A stretch of DNA of 64,000 bases from Eledone cirrhosa. Lineage: Eukaryota. The translations under genes and the position numbers were made by a program. Location of the stretch: assembly GCA_964016885.1 (NCBI GenBank), contig OZ024743.1, forward strand, positions 148,180,001 to 148,244,000, read 5' to 3'. Under the pieces are notes generated by a model. The model was not told the origin of the DNA. It saw only the letters and a program-made list of their open reading frames with translations, and searched no databases. This document shows positions 10,660 to 54,663 of the stretch, piece by piece (within the stretch, counting starts at the first letter, position 1; each line of letters starts with the position of its first letter).

Positions 10660-11047
10660 GTTATAAAGAGGAATTAGATCAATAGTATAAACTCTACCGA
10701 CCTATATCACAAGAACGATCCATGTGTAGCACAGAGGACTAAGTAGAGTGGGGTGCGTGGACGACGCGTCACCGCTAGATGCCGATACATATAAGACCAA
10801 AATCAGTTACAATAATTAAAGATAAGGAAAAATTAAGTTAAGGAAATTAAAGATAAGAGATAAAACGTAAAGGGTAGAGTCTAGAAGTAAGGATCAAATA
10901 AAGATAACAATAAAGTGATGATAATATAAGAAAATATAAAAAAATAATAAAAATAATAAAAATAAAAATGAGAAGAAAATATGAGAATAAAAATAGGTGA
11001 TAAAAATAAAGATAAAAATAAAAATGAAAATAAAAAATATATATATA

Positions 11048-11241
11048 TAACGAAGGAGTTGTGGTAAGGAACCAGATGGACCATAACGCACCAGAGTACT
11101 CAATACTTAGGGTAGTAGAGTGGGTAATAGGAAAAGGTATGACCCCGACGGCAGAGCTGAAGCCGTTTCGACGGCTATTTCTGGACTGAAATAGCAGTCG
11201 AAACGGCTTGAGCTCTGCCGTCGGGGTCATACCTTTTCCTA
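11048..11241 (-). mobile_element. Family D short repeat with inverted 5' duplication
   Basis: 11128-11181 and 11188-11241 form a near-perfect hairpin; body matches 13458-13589 and 37351-37492. Confidence 0.7.
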
Positions 11242-11256
11242 TATATATATATATGT

Positions 11257-11438: not shown

Positions 11439-11519
<81 letters not shown>

Positions 11520-11807
11520 CAAATAACGAAACGAAATTAAATTTCGTTTCGCTTCTAACTCACTTTTGTATGACTGACGCTTAAACAATTAAGTTAAAAG
11601 TGTACATCTACATATGTATATGGAAATATTAGTATGCATATAAATACACACATGTATACATATGTACATGTACTGAGTTTTTCACTGGACACTTTACTGT
11701 GAGTGTCCAGCTAGTCTGTATGTAACCAAACAGACAAACCGGGTTTTAGAGTCATACGGGTTTTCAAGGAAACACATTTCCTCTATTCTCCAGAGAGCCA
11801 GACAGGA

Positions 11808-11850
11808 ATATTGGACTAGTTTCGATGTTATTACATCTCATCAGCAATAT
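11808..11850 (-). ncRNA. Type I hammerhead ribozyme (array A, inverted unit)
   Basis: Reverse complement of atattg-CTGATGA-gatg taataa catc-GAAA-ctag-TC-caatat. Confidence 0.9.
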
Positions 11851-12086
11851 ATACCCATCTTCCGGCTTCTCTAGAGAATCGTAAAAGCACATATCGTTAT
11901 ATGCTTTTTCTATGAAAATTAGTAGTGGGCAGACTAATTTGCATAGAACGTGAGTCATTGTACGCACCGGTTCAGCGGAAACTATACGTTCTATGCAAAT
12001 TAGTCTGCCCACTACTAATTTTCATAGAAAAAGCATATAACGATATGTGCTTTTACGATTCTCTAGAGAAGCCGGAAGATGGGTTT

Positions 12087-12129
12087 ATATTGCTGATGAG
12101 ATGTAATAACATCGAAACTAGTCCAATAT
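12087..12129 (+). ncRNA. Type I hammerhead ribozyme (array A unit 1), predicted cut after 12123
   Basis: atattg-CTGATGA-gatg taataa catc-GAAA-ctag-TC-caatat; stem I extends via ctctagagaagccgg / ctggctctctggag. Confidence 0.92.
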
Positions 12130-12450
12130 TCCTGTCTGGCTCTCTGGAGAATAGAGGAAATGTGTTTCCTTGAAAACCCGTATGACTCTAAAACCCGGTT
12201 TGTCTGTTTGGTTACATACAGACTAGCTGGACACTTACAGTAAAGTGTCCAGTGAAAAACTCAGTACATGTACATATGTATACTTGTGTGTATTTATATG
12301 CATACTAATATTTCCGTATACATATGTAGATGTACACTTTTAACTTAATTGTTTAAGCGTCAGTCATACAAAAGTGAGTTAGAAGCGAAACGAAATTTAA
12401 TTTCGTTTCGTTATTTGTTTTTATCGTTTCCGCTGAACCGGTGCGTACAA

Positions 12451-12471
12451 TGACTCACGTTCTATGCAAAT
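12451..12471 (+). promoter_or_regulatory. AP-1 site (TGACTCA) plus octamer (ATGCAAAT) in array A units
   Basis: Exact motifs at 12451/12464 and 12922/12935, octamer alone at 11993; octamer also conserved in array B. Confidence 0.45.
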
Positions 12472-12556
12472 TAGTCTGCCCACTACTAATTTTCATAGAA
12501 AAAGCATGTAACGATATGTGCTTTTACGATTCTCTAGAGAAGCCGGAAGATGGGTA

Positions 12557-12601
12557 AATATTGCTGATGAGATGTAATAACATCGAAACTAGTCCAATAT
12601 T
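12557..12601 (+). ncRNA. Type I hammerhead ribozyme (array A unit 2), predicted cut after 12594
   Basis: aatattg-CTGATGA-gatg..catc-GAAA-ctag-TC-caatatt. Confidence 0.92.
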
Positions 12602-13026
12602 CCTGTCTGGCTCTCTGGAGAATAGAGGAAATGTGTTTCCTTGAAAACCCGTATGACTCTAAAACCCGGTTTGTCTGTTTGGTTACATACAGACTAGCTG
12701 GACACTCACAGTAAAGTGTCCAGTGAAAAACTCAGTACATGTACATATGTATACATGTGTGTATTTATATGCATACTAATATTTCCGTATACATATGTAG
12801 ATGTACACTTTTAACTTAATTGTTTAAGCGTCAGTCATACAAAAGTGAGTTAGAAGCGAAACGAAATTTAATTTCGTTTCGTTATTTGTTTTTATCGTTT
12901 CCGCTGAACCGGTGCGTACAATGACTCACGTTCTATGCAAATTAGTCTGCCCACTACTAATTTTCATAGAAAAAGCATATAACGATATGTGCTTTTACGA
13001 TTCTCTAGAGAAGCCGGAAGATGGGT

Positions 13027-13069
13027 ATATTGCTGATGAGATGTAATAACATCGAAACTAGTCCAATAT
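13027..13069 (+). ncRNA. Type I hammerhead ribozyme (array A unit 3), predicted cut after 13063
   Basis: Identical core and stems to units 1 and 2. Confidence 0.92.
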
Positions 13070-13283
13070 TCCTGTCTGGCTCTCTGGAGAATAGAGGAAA
13101 TGTGTTTCCTTGAAAACCGTATGACTCTAAAACCCGGTTTGTCTGTTTGGTTACATACAGACTAGCTGGACACTCACAGTAAAGTGTCCAGTGAAAAACC
13201 CAGTACATGTACATGTGTATACATGTGTGTATTTATATGCATACTAATATTTCCGTATACATATGTAGATGTACACTTTTAAC

Positions 13284-13370
<87 letters not shown>

Positions 13371-13457
13371 ATATATATATTTATCCTTATCGAGCCCTCT
13401 TTGGATTTTAGTCTTCAAATTTATTATTATTACTATTATATATATATATATATATAG

Positions 13458-13587
13458 AATTAGCCGTCGAAACGGCTTGAGCTCAGCCGTCGGGGTCTTA
13501 CTTGTTCCTATTACCCACTCTACTACCCTAAGTATTGAGTACTTTGGTGCGTTATGGTCCACCTGGTTCCTTACCACATCTCCTTCG

Positions 13588-13589
<2 letters not shown>
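13458..13589 (+). mobile_element. Family D short repeat (3' half of an HHR)
   Basis: tagccgtc-GAAA-cggct tgagctc agccg-TC-ggggtc; TA-flanked. Confidence 0.7.
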
Positions 13590-13634
<45 letters not shown>

Positions 13635-16478: not shown

Positions 16479-16995
16479 TATATATATATAAGTATGTATA
16501 CGTACAAGTATATATGTATACAGACGTACTGTAGTATGTATATATATATACATACATGCACACATATATATATGTACGTATGGATTCACCAAACATTTAT
16601 TATAATGCTCGGTGTGTTTGTAAACAAACATCCCGAATTAAGCCGTACACATATTAAGGTACGGCTTAATTCGGGATGTTTGTTTACAAACACACCGAGC
16701 ATTATAATAAATGTTCGGTGAATCCATATGTATATATATATATGTGTGCATGTATATATATATATATATATACATACTACTGTACGTCTGTATACATATA
16801 TGTATGTACGTATACATACTTATATTTAAGTAACAGCCGTACTAAGAGTGAAAAATGAAATTTCATTTCATTTTTTCCGTTTATCGTTTTCGGTGCACCC
16901 GGCCGATTAACCCACTCGATATGCAAATTGGGCTACTCAGCCGTTAATATGCATAAGGTAAGTATATACGTTCAACAATCTGGCAGGAAGGTATA

Positions 16996-17036
16996 CGTCG
17001 CTGACGATAGCTAATAAGCTTGAAACTAGTACAGCG
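16996..17036 (+). ncRNA. Type I hammerhead ribozyme (array B unit 1, stem I mismatched)
   Basis: cgtcg-CTGACGA-tagc taataa gctt-GAAA-ctag-TA-cagcg. Confidence 0.75.
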
Positions 17037-17300
17037 TTCCTTTGTCAGTGTTGATCAAACGAGCAACGATGGTTACTGGACACTACGGCTTAATACGGGA
17101 TGTTTGTTTACAAACACACCGAGCATTATAATAAGCCTAAGAGTAAGAAATGAAATTTCGTTTCATTCTATTCCATTTATCGTTTACGGTGTGCCCGGCC
17201 GACTGAACTCACTCGATATGCAAATTAGGCTGCTCAGCCGTTAATATACATAAGGAAAGTATATACTTTCAGACGTTCAACCATCTGGCAGGAAGGTATA

Positions 17301-17341
17301 CGATGCTGACGATAGCTAATAAGCTTGAAACTAGTACATCG
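17301..17341 (+). ncRNA. Type I hammerhead ribozyme (array B unit 2), predicted cut after 17336
   Basis: cgatg-CTGACGA-tagc taataa gctt-GAAA-ctag-TA-catcg; stem I extends ctggcaggaa / ttcctgtgtcag. Confidence 0.88.
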
Positions 17342-17741
17342 TTCCTGTGTCAGTGTTGAACAAAAAGGTAACGTGGTTGCCTAAACACTGTACGGGGTAA
17401 TTCGGGCTGTTTTTTTGTTTACAAACAAACAAACCGAGCATTATAATAAATGTTCGGTAAACCGATACGTGCATATATATATATGTGTGTATATATATAT
17501 ACATACTACTGTACGTCTGTATACATATATGTATGTACGTATACATACATAATACTTACATTTAAGTAAGTGCCGTACTAAGAGTGAGAAATGAAATTTC
17601 GTTTCATTCTATTCCATTTATCGTTTTGGGTGTGCCCGGCCGACTGAACTCACTCGATATGCAAATTAGGCTGCTCAGCCGTTAATATACATAAGGAAAG
17701 TATATACTTTCAGACTTTCAACCATCTGGCAGGAAGGTATA

Positions 17742-17782
17742 CGATGCTGACGATAGCTAATAAGCTTGAAACTAGTACATCG
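17742..17782 (+). ncRNA. Type I hammerhead ribozyme (array B unit 3), predicted cut after 17777
   Basis: Identical to unit 2. Confidence 0.88.
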
Positions 17783-17875
17783 TTCCTGTGTCAGTGTTGA
17801 ACAAAAAGGTGACGTGGTTGCCTAAACACTGTACGGCGTAATTCGGGCTGTTTGTTTGTTTATATATATATATAT

Positions 17876-35935: not shown

Positions 35936-36902
35936 GGTAACATGATATGAGGCATAATACCACTTGTTTACAGGAAAGTGCTAAGTCTACATATGACAGA
36001 AATTTAAGAGTAAGAAAAAGATAGGAAAATAGAAGAAAAGGAAAGAAGAAGGAGAAAAAGGAAAAAGAAAGAGTAGAGAGGAAAAAAGGAAAAAGGAAAG
36101 AAAGAAGAGAGGGAATGAGAAAATGAGAGAGAGAGAGACTTTTCATCAGGAACGCTGTCAAAATGAAACAAGCTGTAAATAACGGTTAAAAAGTAAATTG
36201 ATGAGGTGTATGTGCGAATATTATAGAAGGTATTCAAATATTAGAGGTCTACAATATAGAAACTGGGTATATTATTTTATATTGGTTTTAAATATAAAAA
36301 ATTGGATTAAGAAGTGTAAAAATGTATTAATAAAATAAATAAAATTAACCGACTTGGTTGGAATTTTCATCGTGAACTCTTTAAACCGGAAAATTCCTCA
36401 ACTTCGCGGTGGAATTTATCGTGTCTCTAATTGTAACAAAGTAAACGTTAATATTATTAAGAAAAATATACTTGATCTATTTAAGCATCTTAACTTAAAA
36501 ATTGAAATCGAGAATAATGATAAATTAGCAAATTTCCTTGATATATCCCTTAATCTAGATACCCGCCTATATTACCCATATCATAAGGATAATGAGAACT
36601 TAAATTACGTTAACTTTAAATCTAACCACCCTAATAATGTTAAAACTGCTATAGTCAGAAGTGTAGAAAAAAGAATCTCTAATTCATCCTCTAATATAGA
36701 TATCTTCGAAGCTAATGCCAACTATTATAATAATGCGCTATCTAGGGCTGGATATCCAGACAAAATTAGGTATACTAAGGAAACTAATCTTGACAGAGCT
36801 TATAGTAACTATAGTAATGTAGCTAGTAATAATTATACCACTAACAGTAATGTAGCTAGTAATAATGATACTACTAACAGGAGAATAAAATATATATGGT
36901 AT

Positions 36903-37352
36903 TAGTATTGGTGCTCTGAAATAGCGATGTATACATGAATGTATTATAGTACATTTGGCCAATGTACCGAATGTTTAATTAAAAACATTTAAAAGACCAT
37001 ACGCTATCAGTTTTAAAGTATTGATTATGTCACTTACTTCTTTTCGGCTAAAGAAGGGAGAGAAGCTGACAGCCTGTTTCCCGCTGGTTGGCGTTCATCA
37101 GGGCCATGTACCCCCCCCCCCTGCTTCCGCCGAAAATTATAGAAGCTGGATTCCTATAGAATACCAGTAATAATCAGGAGCTGATTATACAGAGCGATGG
37201 CCGGTCCAACAAAAATTAGGTATTAGGAGTGGTGCTCTGAAATAGCGATGTAAACATGAATGCATGTATAGTATATATGTCTTCTAAATGTTTTTAATTA
37301 AACATACGATATATTGCCAAATATACTATACATGCATTCATGTATACATCGC
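36903..37352 (-). mobile_element. Retrozyme-like element C (~321-nt unit, ~1.3 copies, 5' inversion) inserted in the PLE
   Basis: gtgctctgaaatagcgatg at 36911 and 37232; 37320-37352 inverts 37244-37276. Confidence 0.7.
37064..37105 (-). ncRNA. Type I hammerhead ribozyme (element C)
   Basis: Minus strand ggcc-CTGATGA-acgc caacca gcgg-GAAA-cag g ctg-TC-agct. Confidence 0.75.
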
Positions 37353-37492
37353 TGGAGTCCAGAAATAGCCGTCGAAACGGTTTGAGCTCTGCCATCGGGG
37401 TCTTGAACATTTTCCTATTACCCACTCTACTACCCTAAGTATTGAGAACTCTGGTTCGTTATGGTCCATCTGGTTCTTTACCACACTTCATT
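37351..37492 (+). mobile_element. Family D short repeat (3' half of an HHR)
   Basis: Matches 13458-13589. Confidence 0.7.
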
Positions 37493-38871
37493 CGGCCCAT
37501 AACATCACTGCTTCAAATTTAGCTAAATTACCTAACCGTAGGAACACGTGCAACCCGGTAGCTGATACTAACTGTAATTGTATGAATCGGGTTGACTGCC
37601 CTCTATCCAGGAAATGCCTCTCCAGTAACATTGTCTACAAATGTAAGGTCGAAACACCCACGTCCCGTAGGGCCTAGATAGGCTTAAACACCAATAGATT
37701 CAAGCAGCGTCTTTACATGCGCACCCATTCTTTTCTTAACCATTTAAGAAGGAATATGACGTCACTTTCAGCTTATATCTGGAGTCTGAAAGACAACCAC
37801 ACCCAATATAGGTTACACTGGGAGATCCTAGCTAAAGTTAGATCGTATAACGGAAAAAAAGACCATGCGATTGTTGCGCCGCTGAAGCCCTGAAAATACT
37901 CTACGCCAAGACCACATCTTAAACAAAAAAATCTGAGGCAATTTCGGCTTGTAAACACAAATTGCATAAAACTTTCCTGTATTATACCCTAACGGATAGT
38001 ACGAACAATACGCGGATAATTTACGTCTTGATGTGGTAGCTAAGTATATTCTATATTATACCTTTAGTTATTTGTATAGGTAAGTATATCTTACTCGTAT
38101 ATTTTGTGAAGGTACGTATACTTTCTCGTACGTATATATGCCTGCATTTGTTATAGGTGTATATATTATATTATATATACTGGTATATATACTTGTTATA
38201 TGCATATGTGTATTTTGTGTTCGTGTATGTATGTGTGTATGCGTGTTTTCACGTATGTAAGGTGTATTTTGGTTGACGTACGTTTGGTGAACATATGTGT
38301 ATTTACCTGTAGGTATGGGTGGGCGTGCGCTATATAAGTATTTATGTGTGTATATTAATATACATTTATATAATTATATGTATATACACACACTATATAT
38401 ATATATATGTTATGTGTACTTGGTGTATACCTTCGTATGTCGCGCGGGTTTATGTATGTATGTGCGCGTTTATGTGTACGTGCATGTATATGCATGCATG
38501 GAGGGTGTTTTCGCGTATGCACGTGTATGTACGTATTTGGATGCGTGTATGTATATATTTAATTATTATTGATTGTATAACCTCTGTCATTTTCGTTCTA
38601 CTAATTTATCTACATTATTCTTAACTCTGAAACCGAGAATCATTCGGTTTCCTAAATAGAATATTAGTCTATGACTTCATTTATACCATAAACGTGGTTT
38701 TGTCTTTGCGTGTAATTGTCCTCATCGCTCCACATAACGACATATTATCTTCGCTTTTTTTCCGTTCATTGGCAGGGAACGTCTTCACGAGCCAAAGTAT
38801 CGTCTTACTGTTTTTATTCGGTTGTAATGTTTTCGAAATATTTACTTCTGCGTTCACAGAATTATTTTTTT

Positions 38872-40042: not shown

Positions 40043-40191
40043 GTTACGTCCCTGTACGATCTGAGTTCAAATCCCGCCGAGGTTGACTTTGAATTTCATC
40101 CTTACGAGGTCGATAAAATAAAGTACCAGTAATGCACTGGGTAATTGCTGGCCTTGTGCCTAAAGTAGAAACAATTATTATTATTATTATT
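40043..40191 (+). mobile_element. 5'-truncated SINE with (TTA)n tail
   Basis: SINE B-box, core and tail. Confidence 0.85.
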
Positions 40192-43100
40192 ATGGGCGAC
40201 TGGAACGGGATCTTAGATGCACGCTGGGATTGTGTGGGGCTAGCGGATAGGGGAGGAAGGTGCAAGAGCCTCACCAACCTGCTCAGGCGTTTTGAACTGT
40301 CTGACAGGTACCGATTGGATTTCCCGAATGTGCCAATGTGGACTTGGACAAACCGCATCGGGTCATCCAGATCATATCTAGATAGAGTATTTTGTAGGGA
40401 AATAGATAGGTCTATTATAGGCTGTCCACAATTAAAGATAGTCAGCTACACGGAACACAAATTCGTGTCTGTGAGACAAGGACCCGGCTACTGGAAGTTA
40501 AACGCGTCATTAACAGCGCGCAAGGTCTACAGAGACCGGATTAGCGAACTAGTTAAGCGGGTGTTGACGGGGGCCATTGTCAACAACAAATGGTGGTTTG
40601 CTCTAAAAAGAGCGATTAGAATAAAGTCCATTAGATTTAGTAAGGCTTTAGCAATAGTAAAAATAGAGCAGAAGGAGAACTAGTTAGAAAATAAGACGAG
40701 GCGCTTACCAAAGGCATCGTTACCGAAGTACTTGCGGCGAAATTGGCCCTTGACCAATTATTCAATGCAAAGCCCGAAGGCTGCGTTGTCAGAGCTAGGG
40801 TGCGTTCAATGGACCCGAGTGGCGGAGGCGCGTCGTGGCAACAAAGCCACGATCCGGTCTTTGGTGGACCACGACGTTCGCATGGTACTCGATCCCGGGC
40901 AAATGTGTGAAGCTTTTCAGCGACACTTCGCTCAGCTGTTCGAGGGCAGCGGCGGGCCGGATCGGGGGATGGACTTTAGTGCCTACCTCGACGGACTCCC
41001 GCGGCTCTTGGCTACTGAGGCGGGGTGTTGCGAAAAGCCGATAACAGCAGCTGAAGTACGGGAGGCAATGACTGTTTTCACAAGGGGTAAATTACCTGGT
41101 TTGGGTGGTGTGCACTATGAAATTTACGTACAGATGCCAGACTTGTTCGGTGGCTTCTTGGCGGACGTCTACTGCAACTGGCAACAGCCGAGGAGTGGCG
41201 GCGCTGCTGGGAAAGGTTCCGGACAAGTGGTATAACATAGATAATTTCAGGACCATAACTCTGCTAAACACAGAGTTCAAGATTTTGGACAAGGTGCTAG
41301 CAAAGAGGTTGGCGCTTTTCGTTGGTGGTCTGGTGGGAGAGGCGCAGACATGCGCCATTCCAAACAGATCCATTCACGACAACCTCCACCTCATGCGATA
41401 CATCGTGGAGACGGTACCTAGGGAACCTGGTACGGGTGGGTCCATGTTAGATTAGTCGAAAGTATTCGATAGGGTCGACCATCGTTATCTGGCGGCAGTC
41501 CTGAGGGCGGCTGGCTTTGGGCCCGGCTTCAGAGGCTGGATCGCTGCCATGCACAGCGACATCTCGTCCCTCTTGTAGGTATAGACTCACGAGCCATTAC
41601 TGCACAAACTGGAGACGTTGAGTGGATCCCGCGCGAACTAGGCTGCGAAATACGATGTCACTGTAGTGATCGAACGCCAAACATATCGAGGCGATCGGCA
41701 CCACACTAAGAGAATACGAAGCGGTGACAGGAGCAATGATCAACCAGGAAAAGTCGGTGAGCCTGCAGCTCGGCACCTGGAGATGCAGGTCCATGCCGTC
41801 CAACTGCGTAGTCGGGCGCTGGACGGACCGGTTAAATAGCTAGGGGTCTGGTCTGGTCCACACCTCCAGGCGGACAAAAACTGGGACGAGGGGAAGAACA
41901 GGGTGGCTTCTCTCATCCAGAAATGGGCAGAGAGGAAGTTATCCCTGAAAGGTCGAGCGGAGGTGGCAAATGCGACCATCGCATCCGTCATCTACCACCG
42001 CCTGACCATCGTGCCTTGTCCTAAGCCTCGCCTGACTGCACTGGAGCGTTTGCTCTTTCGCTTTTTGTGGAAGGGACGCGCTCCGATGTTCAGGCGGTCC
42101 ATCTGCTGTCAACACCCGCTAAGTGGAGGGCTGGGCATGCCGTGGCAGATGCTGCGCAGAAACGCGCTCAGGCTACGACATCTCCATCTCTTCCTCGACG
42201 GGGATCATGTGTGGTCGCCGTTTGCTAGACGCGTCTCTCCCCAGCTCGTCTCCTTGACAGAACTGCAGTCCTGGGTCAAGCGAAGATTGAGAGTGAGCGC
42301 TTGGAGACTGGAATGTCTTCAGGTGTTCACGGCCCTCGACCAGTCGGGCAATGTGGTCGGTGGAAACTCCACCTTGGCGTTCTATAGAGGATTAGTGGAG
42401 GGGAAGAGCGACAACCTACTTGGGGAAACTCTAGGCGTCGACGAAAATCAACTAGCCAATCTCTTTGAAAGAACTTTCCTGCCGGGGCCTATGGACAATT
42501 ACAAGAAATCCTTGGCCCGGCAGTGCTTCCAAGGAGTTTTGCCAGTTCGGCATAAACTCTACAGGCACGGAAGTGCCGTCACCCGGGCATGTCCGAGATG
42601 CGCGCAGGGCAACGAAACCGTACTGCATGAACTCGTCCAGTGTCCGAGCATTGCTGACTTGTGGGTTTATTTCGAACACCTGCTGTCGCCTGTAGAACAG
42701 ATTCGGCTATCAGCTGAGTCCATCTTGAGGATTGCTCCGCCCTCTTCCTTTAGCCGGGAAAGGCAAACAGTTTTTATCTGTCTGGTGGCCATGGCGAAAG
42801 AGATAGTATGGTGGACGCGTCTGAAAAAGCTGAAGACGAGCACATACCCCTTCGGTGATGCCCTGATTAACTTTTCAAATTTCATTTGAAAAGGAAAATC
42901 AGGGTGGAGAGGGAAGTGCTCTCTTCCGAGAATTTTGTTGAAAGATGGGTGAGACAGGCAAGTATGGCCCGAGTGAATGGACCCACTCTGAGTATATGCC
43001 TGTAAATTGAAGGTGGAAAACGGGAGGGGGCACTTGCCCTGGTGGTCAGGGTCACCGTGGCTTTTTTTAATGGGCTTTCTCCACGGTGGCCCTCGGAAGC

Positions 43101-43300
43101 CCCCCCCCCCCCCCCCACACACACACACCTATTGGGGAATGTTTCATTGTTCTTCTTTTTGTCACATCCTTTGTTTTTTGGTTTTTGGGTTTTTTACACG
43201 CAGAAATAACCATTTGTACTGTCCTGTATTGTCCTGTACTGTCCTTAATGTCTACTTTATGTAAACCCGTGTGGTTAATAAAGAGTTTCCCCAAGTACGT
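40192..43300 (+). mobile_element. 5'-truncated, decayed Tx1/L1-type LINE (APE end, RT with internal deletion, CCHC finger, 3' UTR)
   Basis: GDWNGIL, SRSYLDRVF, GYWKLNAS, NFRTITLLNTEFKIL, LSLKGR, GGLGMP, CPRC..ETVLH..QCP; aataaa then ttattatta. Confidence 0.92.
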
Positions 43301-43596
43301 TATTATTATGGACGCACATGTGTGAAGACTATACAAATCTGCGGGGGGAAATGTTCGTAACTTTAAGCTGTTTTAAAGTGTCATTTTTTGTATTTTCTTG
43401 TCGTTAACGAAACATAAGGTACACATCTTGGTTTCAAGAGAGGGATACCTCTCAATATTCGGGCTTTAAGCCCGAATATTCAGATTTATTTTTTTTTAAA
43501 TCGGAAATTGTCGACCTTGAAACGGTAAACAACGTTCAGGTCAAAAGTTTAAAAGCAGCCACTGTAGATCTCACCACGACTACGACGGCTACAGTC

Positions 43597-45500
43597 ATGC
43601 CTGTCGTCCACTCTACTGAATGTGAAGGCAAAACTCAAAAGCTACCATCACAACCTTCTGTGTTAGCAGCAGTATCATCTGAAAACGACATCACCACCAC
43701 CACCGCCGCCGCCACCGCAACCACCGCCACCACCACCACCACAACAACAACTCAGAGCAATAACGACAATAACACCGACAGCTTCAATGTAAACACGGAT
43801 GGCGGTGGCAACAGCAACAACAAACAAAACAACAACAACAACACCAATAACAACAGCAAGAATGACAACACCAACAACAAGAGCATCAGAAGCACCACAT
43901 TTGCTGCAGCAGCACCAAAAACAAAGCGCTTATTGGATTTTGATATTAGCGATAAAGACGAACAGTTGGCCCAGGCGTGGGGGCTAATTAAACGGGAGAA
44001 GTCCTGGGCAAACCTGACCACCCCGGACGGGGCAATAGCGGCCATGCAAAGGAGGACGGTGTACTTTCGATGCATTCCGGTGCAGACACGAAAAGTGGAA
44101 CTTGCCAGCCAAGCAGAGGTCGAGGCTGCTTTGGAGTACATCGGAAGTAACATAGAGTATAAAACAAGAAGCAAACAGTTCGGTACCATCTCGGTACTGT
44201 TCAAAACCGAGGCCCTAGCTATTAAGCACTCGGTGACCCTCTGCAGAACGGAACGCATTATCATGCATCAGTCCAACATGGGTAAAAGGACAGTAAAGGT
44301 CCGCATTCCCAGCATCCGACCAGGAATGAACATATGGTGGCTGCTGGGATGCATAATCGAGGAGGGGACAGACACTACACTCCTGGATATCAAAAGGACA
44401 GAGAGAGAGGACTGGTCCGGTATGGATTTGGAGATTCTTCTACTTATGAAACCGGAGGACATGAACAACATCGCGGATTTTGCCCGCCTGCAGGACGGGA
44501 CAACAATCCAACTAATCACTGACGGAAGAAAGCCACGCTGCTTCGTCTGCGGGGAAGCAACGCATCTGCAAGCCTTCTTCCCTCAGCGCAAAAATGGAGG
44601 GGGTCGCAAAACTCCTTTGTTGCCAATGCCAGTGTCAGCACGGAAAGCTGCACCACCACCACCACCACCAAAAACACCACCACCAAAAACAACACCAACA
44701 AAGACACGGACACCAACATCAAAAACAGCCGGATCACCACCAACACCAAAACCAATCCAAGGGGAAAACGAGGAAAGCACTCCCCCCCCCCATTATACAC
44801 ATACACAAAACAATAAACGCACACACAGACACTGAGACACTCACAGCCACAGACCCTTTGTCTTCCAGCAGCGAAGATGAAGGAAAACCCAAAAGTGAAA
44901 AAAAACAGAAAACTCACAAAAAAAAAAGCCCCAACAAAACACAATAACATACACAACAAAAAATACAGACACCACTAACGCAAACACTTCCCCAATAACA
45001 TCAGCACCAACAGCAACATCGACACCACCCCCACAATCCCCGAAACGCAAACAACCTAAACAAACACAAGTACAAATAAACACACAAATACTTGAAATTG
45101 CAGACACCACACCTACAACAAACACAGACATACCCGAAACAACACCACCAAAACCATGACCACCACAGTCACCTAAACGAAAACAAATAAAACCACACCA
45201 ACAAAATGTTAAAAACTTCGTGCTTACAAGAAGGGCCAACGATAAACTGATGGCCCTCTTAGCACGAAGCGAGGACGTTCAAACAGAGGGGGAGATTTTT
45301 GAAAGGAGCACATTTTGCGTGCCAGAAGATTTGCTTCTGGTCCGAATGTCACTCAATTCCTTCAAAGAAATTCGAGAGAGCTTTCCTCAAGACGTGGGAA
45401 ACCCGAATGTGAAACCCACATCGAGATTTTAAAGGGGTTCCCAAAAGAAACCCCACCAACTATGGAGGTCGAACCACCCGACCTTCACCCCGGGAGGTAA
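43597..45500 (+). pseudogene. Tx1-type ORF1 (gag-like, zinc knuckle, Pro/Thr-rich), frameshifted
   Basis: 412-aa ORF with GRKPRCFVCGEATH, continuing in other frames to ~45500. Confidence 0.75.
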
Positions 45501-45533
45501 GTAAACCTTCCCTCTCTCTCTTAGCTTACCAAC

Positions 45534-48500
45534 ATGGCCATATTAAGAGTAGGAAGTTTAAATGTTCGCGGCCTGGGGTCACCCTGGAAGCAGGGTCGCC
45601 TGCTCAACGACCTCAGGTCACTGGAAATGGATATGATTGCCGTCAGCGAGACCAACATTTTCGACACGCGCGCACTAGCCCCTATTTTCTACGACTATCA
45701 GATCTTCGCATTTGTTAGCAGGCCGGGAATGGAGGTGGGGTGGAAGTGCTGTTTAGGAAAGGACTGGCTCTCGAGGTAAGTTCGATCTTCCGGGACCCGG
45801 ACGGTAATTTGGTGGTCTTGGATGTGAGCAGTAGCGAAGGTGGTGCCTTTAGACTGCTGGCCGCCTACGCCCCTACTGGGGCCGGACGACCGGATTTCTT
45901 TAGGCGCCTGGAGACCTTTCTGGGTACGTCTCGCCCTTTACTGTTAGCGGGGGACTGGAATGACATCTTAGACGCACGCTGGGATTGTGTGGGAGTAGCC
46001 GATAGGAGCGGGGGGTGCAAAAGCCTCAAGCACCTACTCAGCCAGTTCCAACTGTCTGACAGGTATCAACTAGATTTGCCCCAATGTGCCAGTATGGACA
46101 TGGACCAACCGAATGGGGTCATCTAGATCGTATATAGACAGGATCTTCATTAGGAAAATAGATATAAATAGTGTAGGCTGCCCACTTTTTAAAACGGTCG
46201 CCTATTCAGATCACAAATTTGTGATCTGTACGGTCGGCCTAGATAAAACGCGTAGATTAGGACCGGGTTACTGGAAACTGAACATGTCATTTCCAGCACG
46301 TAAGGCTTACAGGGACCGAGTCAACAATTTAGTTAAGCAAAAGTTGACAGGGGGGATCATCAACAACAGATGGTGGGGGGCTCTCAAAAGAGAGATTAGA
46401 GTAACTTCGATAGAGTTCAGCAAAGAACTAGCGTTAGAGAAAAATAGAAAGGAGGGGGAGCTGGTAGATAAGTTAGACGAGGCTATTTGTAGTGGCATTG
46501 CAACTGACGTGCTAGCGGCGAGAATGGCATTAGACCATTTCTTCAATGCGAAACACGAAGGTTGCATTGTCACAGCTAAGGCGCGTACGCTAAGAAACGA
46601 GGGAACCAAAGCTGTTCGATGGGCCCGCGTAGCGGAGGCGCAGCGTGATAATAAAACCACAATTCGGTCTTTGGCGAACCGAGACGGACACGAGATAAGC
46701 GATTCCAAGCGGATGTGTGAGGCCTTTCGCCACCACTTTGCTCGGTTCTTCAGGGAGAGTGGCGAGTCAGAGAAAGTAGCGGACTTCAGTCCCTACCTTG
46801 ACGGCTTGCCGCGCATCTCGACGGTCGACGCTGAGCGCTGCGAAAGGCCGATTACTTCAGCAGAAATTCAGGACGCCCTTGTCGGCTGCATGAGGCGCAA
46901 GTCACCCGGTTTGGATGACCTGCCCTACGAGATTTACGTAAATATGCCAGACTTGTTATCCGATCTCCTCGAAGCACTCTACTGCAACTGGCAGCAAAAT
47001 GGGAGTATTCCCAGTTCTGTGAGCAGGGGAGTGGTGACGCTGATAAGGAAAGACGAGAACAAGAGGGATACATTAGACAACTTCAGGCCCATAACTCTGC
47101 TCAACACAGAGTTTAAGATTTTGGCCAAGGTGTTAGCAAAGAGATCGTCGCTTGTCGTCGAGGATTTGGTTGGGGAGGCGCAACAATGCGCAATCCCAGC
47201 CAGGTCCATACACGACAATCTCCACCTCGTGCGATACATCATAGAGAGGATAGGGTGTAAACCTGGCTTCGGTGGGGCACTGATCAATCGAAAGCATTGG
47301 GGTCGACCATCGGTATCTGTTCGGCCCTGTCTTCAGAAGCTGGATCGCTGCAATGCACAGCGGCACAAGCTCGGTCGTCAAGGTTAATGGCCACCTCTCG
47401 GAACCATTTATGCTCTCCCGATCGGTCCGTCAAGGGTGCCCTCTCTCTTCCCTTCTGTACGTATTGACTCTCGAGCCTTTAACGCGTAAGCTGGAGCTGT
47501 TGCAGGGCATCCCGTTCGAACCGGGACGTGGAAGGGCGGTGTCGGTTTATGCGGACGACATCGCCGTGATGGTGTCGAACACCTCAGAGATCGAGGTGGT
47601 CGGCACCTTATTGAAGGAATTTGAAATGTTGACAGGAGCCAAACTTAACCCGGAAAAGTCGGTGTGCTTGCAGCTCGGATCCTGGAGTGGCAGGCCCATG
47701 CCGTCCAACAGCGTTGTGGGGCGCTGGACGGACGGACCGGTAAAGTTGCTCGGGGTTTGGTTCGGACCAGACCTCCAGGTGGAAAAGAATTGGGACGAGG
47801 TAACGAGCAGAATAGCCAGTCTCACCCAAAAATGGGCTGGGAGGAAGCTGTCACTGAAAGGTCGCGCGGAGGTGGCAAATGCGTACATCGCGTCCGTCAT
47901 CTACTACCGCCTGACCGTCGTGCCTTGCCCCCGTCCGCGCCTCGTCTAGTTGGAACGGCTCCTCTTCAAATTCTTGCGGTGGGGACAAGTTCCGTTAGTA
48001 AGGCGGACCCATCTGCTGCCAGCACCCTCTACGCGGAGGGCTGGGCATGCCGTGGCTAATGATGCGCAGACATGCGTTGAAGCTGCGACATCTCCAGATA
48101 TTCTGCCACAACGGTGAACAGGTGTGGTCGTCGTTTATCAGGTGGGCCTTTCCGCAGCTCATTTCTTTGACTGAGCTGCCGTCCTGGGTCAAGAAGAGAC
48201 CGAGACTGGGTGACTGGCACCTGGAATGTTGCCAGGCACTCACTGCCCTCTACCAAGCGGGCAATGCGATCAGATGAACTTCCACTCTCGAGTTCTATAG
48301 AGGATTAGTGGTGGGCAAGTGCGATGACGCACTCGGAGAAGCTTTGGGCCTCGACGAAGTCGAACTGACCAGTCTATACCGGAGGATTTTCGAGCCGAGG
48401 ACGATGGACAATTTGCAGAAATCCCTCGCTTTGCAGTGCTACCGGGGGACACTGCCGGTTCGGGATAAACTCTACAGGCACGGAAGTGCTGTCAGACGGA

Positions 48501-48920
48501 CCTGCCCAAGATGCGCACCGAACGACGAAACCGTTCTGCAGGCACTTGTCCAATGTCCGTGCATTACTGACTTGTGGAGTTATGTCGAACAGCTACTGTC
48601 GCGTGTGGAACGAAACCGGCTATCGGCCGAGTCCATAGTGAAGATCGACCCGCCGCCTTCCTTAGGTCAGGAAGAGCAGGAAATGTTCCTCAGTCTGGTG
48701 GCAGTTGCGAAAGAGGTTATATGGTGGACCAGGTTAAAAGGACTGAAGACAGACACTTTTCTCTTCGGCCAATCCCTCATCAACGTCTTCAAGTTTCACC
48801 TGGAAAGGAAGGTGAGGGTGGAGAGAGAAGTGCTGCCCCCCAGTACATTTGCTAAAAGGTGGATGAATGTGGTGAGAATGGCTCGTGTGAATGGGCCTAC
48901 TCTGACCTGCACCTACAGGC
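45534..48920 (+). pseudogene. Tx1-type ORF2 endonuclease/reverse transcriptase, frameshifted
   Basis: SLNVRGL, AVSET, YAP, GDWN, SDHK, KSPGLD, RPITLLN, SVRQGCPLS, YADDI, CPRC..ETV. Confidence 0.92.
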
Positions 48921-49212
48921 TAGCTAACTTAGAGGTGCTCTCCCTGGGTGCCCTAGAAGCGCAGGGTGGTTCAGGATTGGTGGGGTACCCGAGTCACCCC
49001 AGGGTCGTCCACCCCCTATCGGGGAATTTATTTTGTTATATTTATGCATAGTTTATTTTATATTCTTATATATTCATTATTAAATTAGTCTTGCCATTGT
49101 GCACTTTTACTCGACCTTATTGTAAACCCCCACTGTCCCTGTCTTTGTATTGTCCCCTACATGTCGGCCCTTGTGGCTAATAAATGAAATCCTTATTATT
49201 ATTATTATTATT

Positions 49213-49553
49213 CTTTGAGTCTCAGTCATTGCTGTTAGTTAACTGGAAAGTTTGTTGAAATGAATATCAAGCCACTACCTGCAGCCTCGGATATTCAGGA
49301 CTTATCGGAGGGTTCTTGCTGTTCCCAGCAAGCATGCCTTTTGAAGCGTTCCAAAAAGCGTGAAGGGGCTAATTTTCTTTAACCATCCCTGGAAACTTTT
49401 TGAGATAGTACCTAGTGCGCCTATGACAATCGGAACCAATTTGACTTCATGGCAGTTCCAAATCTTTTTACCTCCCACTCTAAGTCCTGGTATCGGTTAA
49501 TTTTCTCCCTCTCCTTCTCTTGCACTCTCGTGTCGAATGGGCAGGCCGCATCC
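49213..49553 (-). mobile_element. 3' fragment of an R4/Dong-type (RLE) non-LTR retrotransposon
   Basis: Minus strand DAACPFDTRVQEKEREKINRYQDL..WNCHEVKLVPIVIGALGTISK..QKACLLGTAR; 3' end abuts (TAA)n. Confidence 0.8.
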
Positions 49554-49554
49554 A

Positions 49555-49743
49555 GGGCGGTGGATTGGCAGTATCAGTAGAGCGCTGGACACCATGCTTT
49601 GAAGTATAGTCTTACGGCCCTTTGCAGTCACAGTTCAAATCCCGCCGAGGTTAACTTTGCCTTTCATCCTTACGGGGTCGATAAAATAAAGTACCAGTAA
49701 TGTACTGGTTAATTGCTGGCCTTGTGCCAAAAGTAAAAACAAT
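49555..49743 (+). mobile_element. Full-length SINE
   Basis: Same family as 866-1056. Confidence 0.87.
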
Positions 49744-49764
49744 TTTTATTATTCTAATTATTAT

Positions 49765-50645
49765 TCTTGGAGTCTCCGTCATTGATGTTATTTAACTGGA
49801 AAGTTTGTTCAAATGAACACCAAGCCGCTACCTACAGCCTCAGATATTCAGGACGTGTCGGAGGGTTCTGGTTGTTCCAAGAAAGCATGCCTTTTGAAGT
49901 GTTCCACAAAAGGGGGCTAGACTAATGCTCTTTAGTCATCCTGGAAAAATCTTCGAGATAGTACCTATTGCTCCTATGACAATTAAGACGATTTTGTTCT
50001 CATGACAGTCCGAAATGCTTTTTAATTCTTACTTTAAATCCCGGTAAAGTTTAATTTTGCATTCTTGTGTCAAGGTGCAGGCTACATCTACAATCAGGCA
50101 TGATTTTTTCCTTGTCAAAAACACCAGGTCAGGCCTATTGTGTTCTAATTTCTTGTCTGCCTGTATCTTGAAATCTCATAGCTCCTTATTATTATTGGTC
50201 GTTTTCTATCACCGACTCTGGCTTATGCTCATACCACGTCTCAGAATGTGGTAAATCATTTAGTTTGCATAAATGCCAGTGAATCACCTTTCCTATTATA
50301 TCATGCCTCCAGCCTTTATAGTGAGTCTGGGCTGAGTGTTTACACTCGGATACGATTTGAGCCACAGTGGCCTCTATCTCTCTCCACAGATCTTACACAG
50401 TAAGCTAGCCTCCTTTTCAATATGGAGTTTCACCCACTTCGTTCTGAGGGCTTGCACTTGTGCAGCCATTAGTATTCCTTCTGTAGCTTTTTTAAGGTCT
50501 CCTCTTTTTAATCTGCTCCATGTATGTGGATCTCTGAATTCCGTTTTCTTAAAGGTGCTCTGAAGGGATTTTTCTTGAAGGCTGCTCTTCCTCTTTGTTG
50601 TTATTTCCTCCTTGGACACCCCCTGGACTTTTGACTTCTCCTTCA
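49765..50645 (-). mobile_element. 5'-truncated R4/Dong-type retrotransposon (CCHC and RLE domain)
   Basis: LKKATEGILMAAQVQALRT..CKICGER; DFKIQADKKLEHNRPDLV; both ends in TAA-like repeats. Confidence 0.85.
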
Positions 50646-53924: not shown

Positions 53925-54592
53925 ATACAAGTTAATACAAATTAATATATTTGATAAACACAAATACCAACATATCCATGTTTGTATTGTAAAGGACTAA
54001 GTTAGTTAGATTGAAAAATACTAATTATAATAATACAGTTTGCCTGTCTCGATTTAAAATAATAAATAAAAAAAAACAAAGTATATTGGCAAATAGCCGT
54101 GGTGCTTGGACAAATTTAAATTTCAAAATCAAACCTGTTCCGTAGACTGGTTTAAACCTTAAAATCCAAATAAGTTTCGAAAAATGAAAGTGAAAGAATA
54201 CCGCATTTCCATCTCCTCAGCAAGCACCAAAAAAATTGGTATGTTTCACTTCAAAATATTTAAAAAGACTGTTTAACGCACATTGTATTTCATGGTATTG
54301 CTGAGGAGATGGAAATGCGGTATTCTTTCACTTTCATTTTTCGAAACTTATTTGGATTTTAAGGTTTAAACCAGTCTATGGAACAGGTTTGATTTTGAAA
54401 TTTAAATTTGTCCAAGCACCACGGCCATTTGCAAATATACTTTGTTTTTTATTGATTTATTATTTTAAATCGAGACAGGCAAACTGTATTATTATAATTA
54501 GTATTTTTCAATCTAGCTAACTTAGTCCTTTACAATACAAACATGGATATGTTGGTATTTGTGTTTATCAAATATATTAATTTATATTAACT

Positions 54593-54597
<5 letters not shown>
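53925..54597. repeat. ~298-bp inverted repeat (53925-54223 / 54298-54597), probable PLE-type insertion with 5' inversion
   Basis: Near-perfect reverse-complement arms, 74-nt spacer, ends in (TA)n. Confidence 0.85.
54294..54372 (+). ncRNA. Degenerate hammerhead ribozyme
   Basis: ggtattg-CTGAGGA-gatggaaatg..catttttc-GAAA-ctta..taagg-TT-taaacc. Confidence 0.5.

Positions 54598-54663
<66 letters not shown>

Follow-up and report, generated by a model that had tools for sequence, protein, structure and literature searches.

In vertebrate-type snRNA promoters, an octamer forms the distal element about 220 nt upstream. The promoter of newt satellite 2, the subject of work by Coats, Zhang and Epstein in 1994, reportedly contains an octamer. 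Satellite 2 is a hammerhead satellite whose internal snRNA-type promoter is read by Pol II (cited in PMC2220036), and polymerase choice in insects depends on minor differences within the proximal element (PMC1761439). Metazoan non-LTR retrozymes have been described by Cervera and de la Pena (2020, PMC7229834) and by Li, Clavereau and Pollet (2026, bioRxiv 10.64898/2026.07.22.740005); in its accessible sections, a 2020 review assumes that such elements are transcribed by read-through and names no conserved helper motif (PMC7761336), and the accessible part of PMC5680766 contains no passage on promoters. A Penelope-like enzyme starts in vitro at two stem-loop sites, the genomic tail being the stretch between them (Frangieh et al. 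2024, PMC11167929), and Craig et al. (bioRxiv 10.1101/2021.04.23.441226) give the same end layout for Penelope-like elements, together with (TA)n targeting in the Hydra clade. The literature that we searched, with few subscription papers and none of the supplements of bioRxiv 10.1101/2021.04.23.441226 and 10.64898/2026.07.22.740005, described no promoter in an invertebrate retrozyme of this kind; those two supplements (Hydra sequences and retrozyme consensus lists) may bear on the helper and on novelty.

Who transcribes and who copies animal retrozymes are questions addressed by a repeat unit found in a 64,000-nt stretch of the Eledone cirrhosa genome (hereafter the window). This unit offers a candidate promoter, with a predicted start at about 12537, together with two mapped candidate start sites of reverse transcription. 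What is known is the kind of element; what is new is its promoter-like part.

Arrays A and B and their hammerhead units

The host genome (3.0 Gb) is AT-rich and microsatellite-rich, and the window holds two arrays of the repeat, A and B. Array A consists of an inverted arm on the minus strand (11513-11986), whose long end (unit position 432, TTTAT|) abuts (TA)n, and of a tandem arm of 2.8 x 471 bp on the plus strand (11986-13289), whose short end (unit position 358) abuts (TA)n as well. Array B (16489-17862, approximate bounds, no strand assigned) is formed by a short inverted arm and three partial or whole units, with octamer boxes at 16921, 17218 and 17659. Another short repeat with an internal inversion occurs at 11037-11242, 13456-13601, 37353-37494 and 1237-1401, and borders array A on both sides, in opposite orientations and abutting (TA)n.

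Array A carries a type I hammerhead motif (12545-12617, plus strand), with its core CUGAUGA at 12564, a palindromic CUAG loop III and a predicted cut after 12594 of the same strand. Four A copies scored 28.8-32.9 bits against Rfam HH9 (E 2e-5 to 5e-4), for a gathering score of 52; the Rfam search at the gathering threshold gave no match in the window, and no B copy was among the HH9 matches listed. Genome-wide, the ribozyme core pattern had 40,624 matches against 16 for the control. With tandem non-coding units, a type I hammerhead in each of them and a dispersed multicopy family, all of them features of non-LTR retrozymes, the stretch appears to belong to an abundant non-coding hammerhead repeat, a retrozyme, the RNA of which would be cleaved and pass through circles. 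Elsewhere in the window, each arm of a large inverted repeat (54080-54600) bears a CTGAGGA...GAAA motif that resembles a hammerhead and has a long stem II.

Over the whole unit, the global identity of A and B is 61%, against 48 ± 1% for 30 shuffles. The two are homologous along the whole unit, so that their sharing of motifs is by descent, and A and B are best described as sister families of the hammerhead repeat. In a list made after filtering out TA-rich words, the longest exact runs common to both were the octamer box (12 nt), a hairpin arm (11), TTTATCGTTT (10), ATGTGTGTAT (10) and the ribozyme core (9).

The first-pass annotation had described a promoter-like block shared by A and B upstream of the ribozyme. 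The block is real, and all the motifs named in A were found where they had been placed, namely AAGTGAG at 12372, GAAACGAAATTT at 12387, TTTATCGTTT at 12420, TGACTCA at 12451 and ATGCAAATTAG at 12464. The octamer-to-CUGA distances (100, 100 and 98 nt in A; 80, 88 and 88 nt in B) match those given before, and the shared motif set holds overall, except that the exact (a/g)agtgag is present in just one of the three B units and the exact hairpin motif in two of them. Seven of the ten exact octamers of the window fall within arrays A and B. Across the genome, the pattern TTTATCGTTT-N25-45-ATGCAAAT matched 17,679 times, which is a lower bound for exact octamer modules, against 4 matches for the reversed pattern used as control.

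The upstream half: insertion ends, RNA fold and Penelope-type neighbours

In 27 A loci, 37 of the 39 family-A 3' ends fell at unit positions 358-363 (n = 18) or 423-433 (n = 19), corresponding to 12350 and 12424 in the window, the second within TTTAT|CGTTT (unit position 432), and the 38 A 5' ends were scattered over unit positions 1 to 465. Where both ends of a two-armed A locus could be seen (12 loci), all but one (L171) had one end of each kind. Among 34 B loci, three of which yielded no segment, 34 of 41 ends lay in two clusters, the long cluster being again at TTTAT|. In sister family C, described below, the ends likewise formed two clusters (17/17, 9 loci), with one of each in 8/8 two-armed loci. 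Scattered 5' ends with an inverted arm, and two fixed 3' ends bounding a tail (A, B and C), are the pattern of Penelope mobilisation. A surplus of 5' ends at the ribozyme cut site was also considered and found unconvincing, just 2 of 38 lying near position 131.

The two fixed ends in A bound a 74-bp tail (12351-12424, plus strand), the putative region in which reverse transcription starts; it contains the agtgag motif, a 13-bp hairpin predicted by RNA folding (12384-12412, plus strand) and TTTAT. The long insertion end follows about 12424, within TTTAT|CGTTT (12420-12429, plus strand), with an uncertainty of 2-3 nt from TA microhomology. Contigs from four runs over part of the unit, three of these runs with just 1-3 thin contigs, speak for its presence only; they have no listed difference in the tail or in the octamer box. 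The upstream half (agtgag, hairpin and TTTAT) is a Penelope-type tail, and likely the structure at which reverse transcription starts.

RNA folding further predicted a three-way junction (12374-12458, plus strand), which includes TGACTCA and ccgg and is closed by a stem of GUGAG (12374-12378) with CUCAC (12454-12458). The fold z was -5.7 for A (12365-12505), -2.6 for B1 and 0.02 for B (17570-17700), the last being no better than shuffles. In the closing stem, 4/6 pairs were changed on both sides and 90% of cells were paired, which 0/500 shuffles reached, in a count over 22 sequences chosen for intact arms and with a shuffle control that ignores relatedness; RNAalifold independently picked the same closing helix. 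The five core positions are all paired in 38 of 54 distinct units, in the versions GTGAG/CTCAC (28 units), GTGGG/CCCAC (8) and GCGAG/CTCGC (2), and the other 16, mostly old copies, have 0-4 pairs. The stem covariation amounts to about two independent compensatory events, and the upstream half, by its fold and pairing, behaves like RNA structure.

The hairpin and TTTATCGTTT had been proposed as promoter parts. Since both sit in the insertion tail, and since TTTATCGTTT is lost in older relatives (3-5 mismatches in 10/10 representatives, which were picked for having the octamer), we do not count them as such. TGACTCA, earlier read as an added (AP-1) site in A, occurs in one of 17 lineage representatives and sits in the 3' arm of the RNA stem; that reading is abandoned.

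Several units are adjoined by pieces of Penelope-type ORFs bearing the Hydra marks DKT and CxCX5C. Such ORFs are common here, being found also beside two snRNA loci and at 36342-37713 of the window, so that their adjacency lends weak support. The Penelope-type assignment follows motifs given in section 11 of Craig et al. (bioRxiv 10.1101/2021.04.23.441226), and Pfam and PDB searches did not name the pieces. Behind 12 truncated Penelope-type ORF ends, no shared terminal sequence was found; the octamer box was absent within 650 nt (or less) behind 11 of 12 such ends, the one match, with 2 mismatches, lying in a TA-rich stretch.

Several further arrangements were seen around ORFs of this type. 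A broken Hydra-like Penelope-type ORF on the plus strand of the window (36342-37890) is interrupted by other repeats. An old hammerhead repeat related to C lies inside a Penelope-type ORF on the minus strand (36898-37300, core 37077-37101), with a period of about 321, AATT-33-TCAG-26-TATA (p 0.012) and a weak distal motif. At L291:3707-7346, a B unit stands at the turning point of two opposed, truncated Penelope-type ORF arms, and at L295:6005-6015 the exact host distal motif TTACCTCCCTT lies 51 nt behind a Penelope-type ORF end. A GC-rich part of the window (40100-50050) holds two related, broken LINE-type copies with endonuclease, RVT_1 and zf-RVT matches.

The octamer block and the snRNA-type promoters of the host

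Host promoters were taken from Rfam searches of the host's own genome, giving seven top-ranked Pol III type-3 genes (three U6, MRP, U6atac and two tRNA-Sec) and 15 distinct U1/U2/U5 genes; the layout of L093, L094, L095, L143, L144, L152 and L153 was compared with that of the U1/U2/U5 loci. Left out were the U6 loci L106 and L107 (no box at -77, L107 having one at -275), four U6 array copies with the box at -270, seven lower-ranked U6atac, three lower-ranked tRNA-Sec and three sub-threshold tRNA matches (none with a box at -77), 12 single U6 matches, of which two fitted the start pattern but had no promoter, and U1/U2/U5/U6 duplicates that were nearly identical. The U6 array copies L099, L100 and L102-L105 have other sequence between the octamer box, shifted to about -270, and TATA.

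An octamer with 0-1 mismatch was present at -76 to -79 in 7/7 top-ranked Pol III type-3 promoters; the box was found at that position in 0/15 U1/U2/U5 promoters, and these 15 had no exact octamer at -200 to -300 either. The Pol III type-3 promoters have TATA 46-48 nt behind the octamer (7/7) and CCT at +15/16 (6/7), and the host Pol III genes contain no internal T4 and end at T5 or longer. U1/U2/U5 promoters have their YCA(G/A) core at -55 to -58, preceded at a distance of 32-34 nt by AATT (15/15) and followed 25-28 nt further on by TATA (14/15). Viewed by class, the Pol II snRNA genes show AATTAA at about -89 and ATCAGTG at about -57, and the host layout includes a 3' box like AAA(T/A)CAGAC; a TATA-like box at -30 occurs in both the Pol II and the Pol III classes, as does the distal motif ATTACCTCCCTTG, found at -233 to -288 in 12 of 22 promoters, mostly at -257 to -271. 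The comparison thus also shows how the host's snRNA promoters are laid out, the proximal octamer being confined to Pol III genes. Judged by this layout, the octamer in this host is proximal and marks Pol III genes, and the distal element is another motif, ATTACCTCCCTTG. The 'distal' label given to the octamer by the first-pass annotation had been taken from vertebrates and does not apply here.

The octamer box of array A, TATGCAAATTAG (12463-12474, plus strand), matches the -76 to -79 box of the host U6, MRP, U6atac and tRNA-Sec genes. The host box consensus TATGC(A/T)AAT(T/G)AG is present in the repeats, at 18.2 bits in A and B and 14.7 in B1, while 0.017% of background positions score 14 bits or more. 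Among the 38 ribozyme-picked copies covering the site, 30 have the exact octamer and eight have one change (four of them from one array); 20 further ribozyme-picked copies are truncated. In a copy-level decay check within B, 7/315 octamer cells differed, mostly through private decay, and subfamily changes affected 0/9 sites of the octamer against about 21/124 elsewhere, a difference that is not significant.

A YCA core stands at octamer+16 (12480-12483, plus strand), the position of the U1/U2-type proximal element, reading CCAC in A, where it is weak, and TCAG in B. It is followed at octamer+43 by a TATA-like box (12507-12512, plus strand), which reads TGTAAC here and TATAAC in two neighbouring units; the TATA of the flagged A copy is mutated, and contigs of run X1 read A at 12508. 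Extrapolating from the host TATA at -30, transcription is predicted to start at TATA+30, that is at 12537 (plus strand), 27 nt ahead of the ribozyme core; the start predicted for B is at about 17290. With YCA at octamer+16, core and TATA are 26-27 nt apart, which is the U1/U2 spacing, whereas the octamer-TATA spacing is 42-43 in A and B against 46-48 in the host, and there is no CCT core.

Among 16 lineage representatives, the first TATA lies at octamer+41 to 44 in 12, at 46-48 in two and at 52 in one, and is missing in one. Eleven of the 16 came from an octamer-requiring pattern, D having first been found without it, and the invariance of the octamer in G, F and H is partly built in, because these were mostly picked for it. 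The mean TATA score by offset was flat. First matrices for the U1/U2-type core gave p values of 0.50 (A), 0.056 (B), 0.032 (B1) and 0.11 (C), and of at most 0.0075 on 15 host genes, each left out in turn; shorter matrices with the AATT block, chosen afterwards, gave 0.26 (A), 0.002 (B), 0.0003 (B1) and 0.002 (C). The U1/U2-type core spacing therefore shows a modest fit in B, but only a weak one in A. The host distal motif ATTACCTCCCTTG is absent from A, B and B1, and the 3' box from A and B.

The octamer box likely belongs to a built-in promoter. The idea of an snRNA-type promoter in each unit stands in so far as the octamer block resembles host snRNA-type promoters, the hairpin and TTTATCGTTT dropping out as its parts, and the accompanying claim that the promoter region is copied along with the unit is borne out, at the level of sequence, by tandem arrays and scattered 5' ends.

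The octamer does not have the generality attributed to it. A search that ignored the octamer and looked for hammerheads with a different loop III sequence gave 20,485 matches against 3,559 for the control and yielded mostly a young family of 310-312 bp, family C (L215-L244 and L252-L259), which is abundant and has no octamer; seven other single loci from this search comprised one with an exact octamer box, one with a decayed box and five with none. Since family C and most other octamer-blind loci are without it, the octamer is best regarded as a feature of one lineage, and snRNA-like promoter parts recur. In family C, the host distal motif (19 bits, 0/200 shuffles) stands at -257/-259 relative to the start predicted for the next unit, AATT-33-YCAG and a TATA-like box are present at U1/U2 spacing, and the two fixed ends are 26 bp apart. 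Part of this distal motif may be fixed by pairing, since there is an overlap with ribozyme stem I in its 3' arm.

A proposed cycle, its alternatives and known systems

Building on the motifs, spacings, host matches, fixed ends and stem covariation observed, we think it probable, though by no means assured, that this retrozyme is the junction of a folded Penelope-type tail and a U6-like octamer box likely belonging to an internal promoter, and we infer a cycle of transcription, cleavage, circularisation and copying, with a putative polymerase and helper. Transcription would begin just before the ribozyme, about 73 nt behind the octamer, under a promoter made up of the octamer box, the YCA at +16 and the TATA-like box at +42/43, and would continue through T-runs into the following unit. 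From this RNA, hammerheads acting in pairs would release a monomer that contains the following unit's promoter and is then closed into a circle. After nicking (TA)n, an enzyme of the Penelope Hydra clade would begin copying at both tail sites and so produce back-to-back arms with one short and one long end; by extending beyond the cut site, this copying would give every new insertion its tail, promoter and ribozyme back.

From the predicted start to the following octamer, the sequence contains T4 and T5 in A, T6 in B1 and T7 in B3, and neighbouring units in two A arrays are 99.9% and 99.2% identical. As new insertions include the promoter region and can extend over many near-identical units, their template must cross the T-runs. 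This favours read-through by Pol II, of which newt satellite 2 is a cited case (PMC2220036), and hence Pol II as the presumptive polymerase of the units. The same element and tail could instead carry a true U6-type Pol III promoter with shortened spacing, leaky termination giving the multimers. The box does match Pol III genes only, including the T and G variants after the octamer, and in A a T5 run ends no more than 2 nt from the long insertion end. We nevertheless consider Pol III transcription unlikely: the spacing is 4-5 nt short in most lineages and reaches 46-48 in just 2/16 representatives, T5 (A), T6 (B1) and T7 (B3) lie in the transcribed region of units whose host has Pol III genes without internal T4, B ends lie beyond a T6 run, and C ends have no T-run.

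Similarly little weight is given to a unit without any promoter, in which descent, or a role in an RNA or protein-binding signal, preserves the octamer and RNA arises by read-through from flanking genes. The 2020 review, as far as its accessible sections go, says that retrozymes seem to be without promoters (PMC7761336), one 12-nt run alone is weak given an A/B identity of 61%, and a hairpin seen in A and B1 has the octamer as one of its arms. This octamer hairpin, however, had compensatory changes in 0/13 pairs over 20 rows, and its 3' arm was unpaired at two positions in 16 of those rows; pairing thus does not explain the octamer, and its maintenance by RNA pairing alone is rejected. The spacing of box, YCA and TATA is, moreover, kept across diverged lineages, and a second lineage has different host promoter motifs at host spacing. 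About as unlikely is an ordinary Pol II promoter of octamer and TATA, inherited from the terminal repeat of a Penelope element, in which a POU factor binds the octamer and the resemblance to the U6 box comes from that same factor. An internal promoter does exist in Penelope (PMC2377424), a relationship links retrozymes with the terminal repeats of Penelope (bioRxiv 10.64898/2026.07.22.740005), and A is without a clear proximal element; but 11/12 Penelope-type ORF ends have no octamer box behind them (650 nt or less), and in sister family C the snRNA distal motif of the host stands where the host itself has it.

Returning to a Penelope-type tail joined to an internal promoter, a wider reading is possible, and we put it forward as tentative: retrozymes may be self-promoting retroelements made from permuted parts of host snRNA promoters. 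A, B and their older relatives would have joined a U6-type box to a U1/U2-spaced core, creating a Pol II promoter able to read T-runs, and C would keep its distal element in the ribozyme stem, so that a tandem copy is needed to place it at -257. The order of ribozyme, promoter and Penelope start signal would be such that a live insertion results only from copying a circle or multimer. The units further offer a natural spacing series for the choice between Pol II and Pol III.

In common with metazoan non-LTR retrozymes, the element has non-coding tandem repeats, one type I hammerhead per unit, low GC, many dispersed copies and a proposed Penelope helper (PMC7229834, bioRxiv 10.64898/2026.07.22.740005), and its sequence also fits retrozymes as presented in PMC4209133. 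Its units are 422-471 bp long against the 170-400 nt reported for metazoan non-LTR retrozymes, and they carry promoter-like blocks, unlike retrozymes as the 2020 review portrays them (PMC7761336).

With Hydra-clade Penelope-like elements the units share (TA)n targets, scattered 5' ends, inverted arms, two fixed 3' ends and a hammerhead with a palindromic loop III. They differ in having no ORF, and no sequence link to any helper's terminal repeat was found; the tail measures 74 bp in A, about 56 bp in B and 26 bp in C, against the usual 30-40 bp in Penelope-like elements.

Among host promoters, the octamer box is that of the U6/MRP/U6atac/tRNA-Sec set, and the YCA-to-TATA distance of 26-27 that of U1/U2/U5. 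The block matches neither set completely, with an octamer-TATA distance of 42-43 instead of 46-48 and without CCT core, distal motif or 3' box. Compared with newt satellite 2, the predicted promoter here has its octamer in a proximal position, 16 nt before the YCA core, and in the host this octamer is a mark of Pol III genes; if this promoter is true, the case of newt satellite 2 would be extended to an invertebrate.
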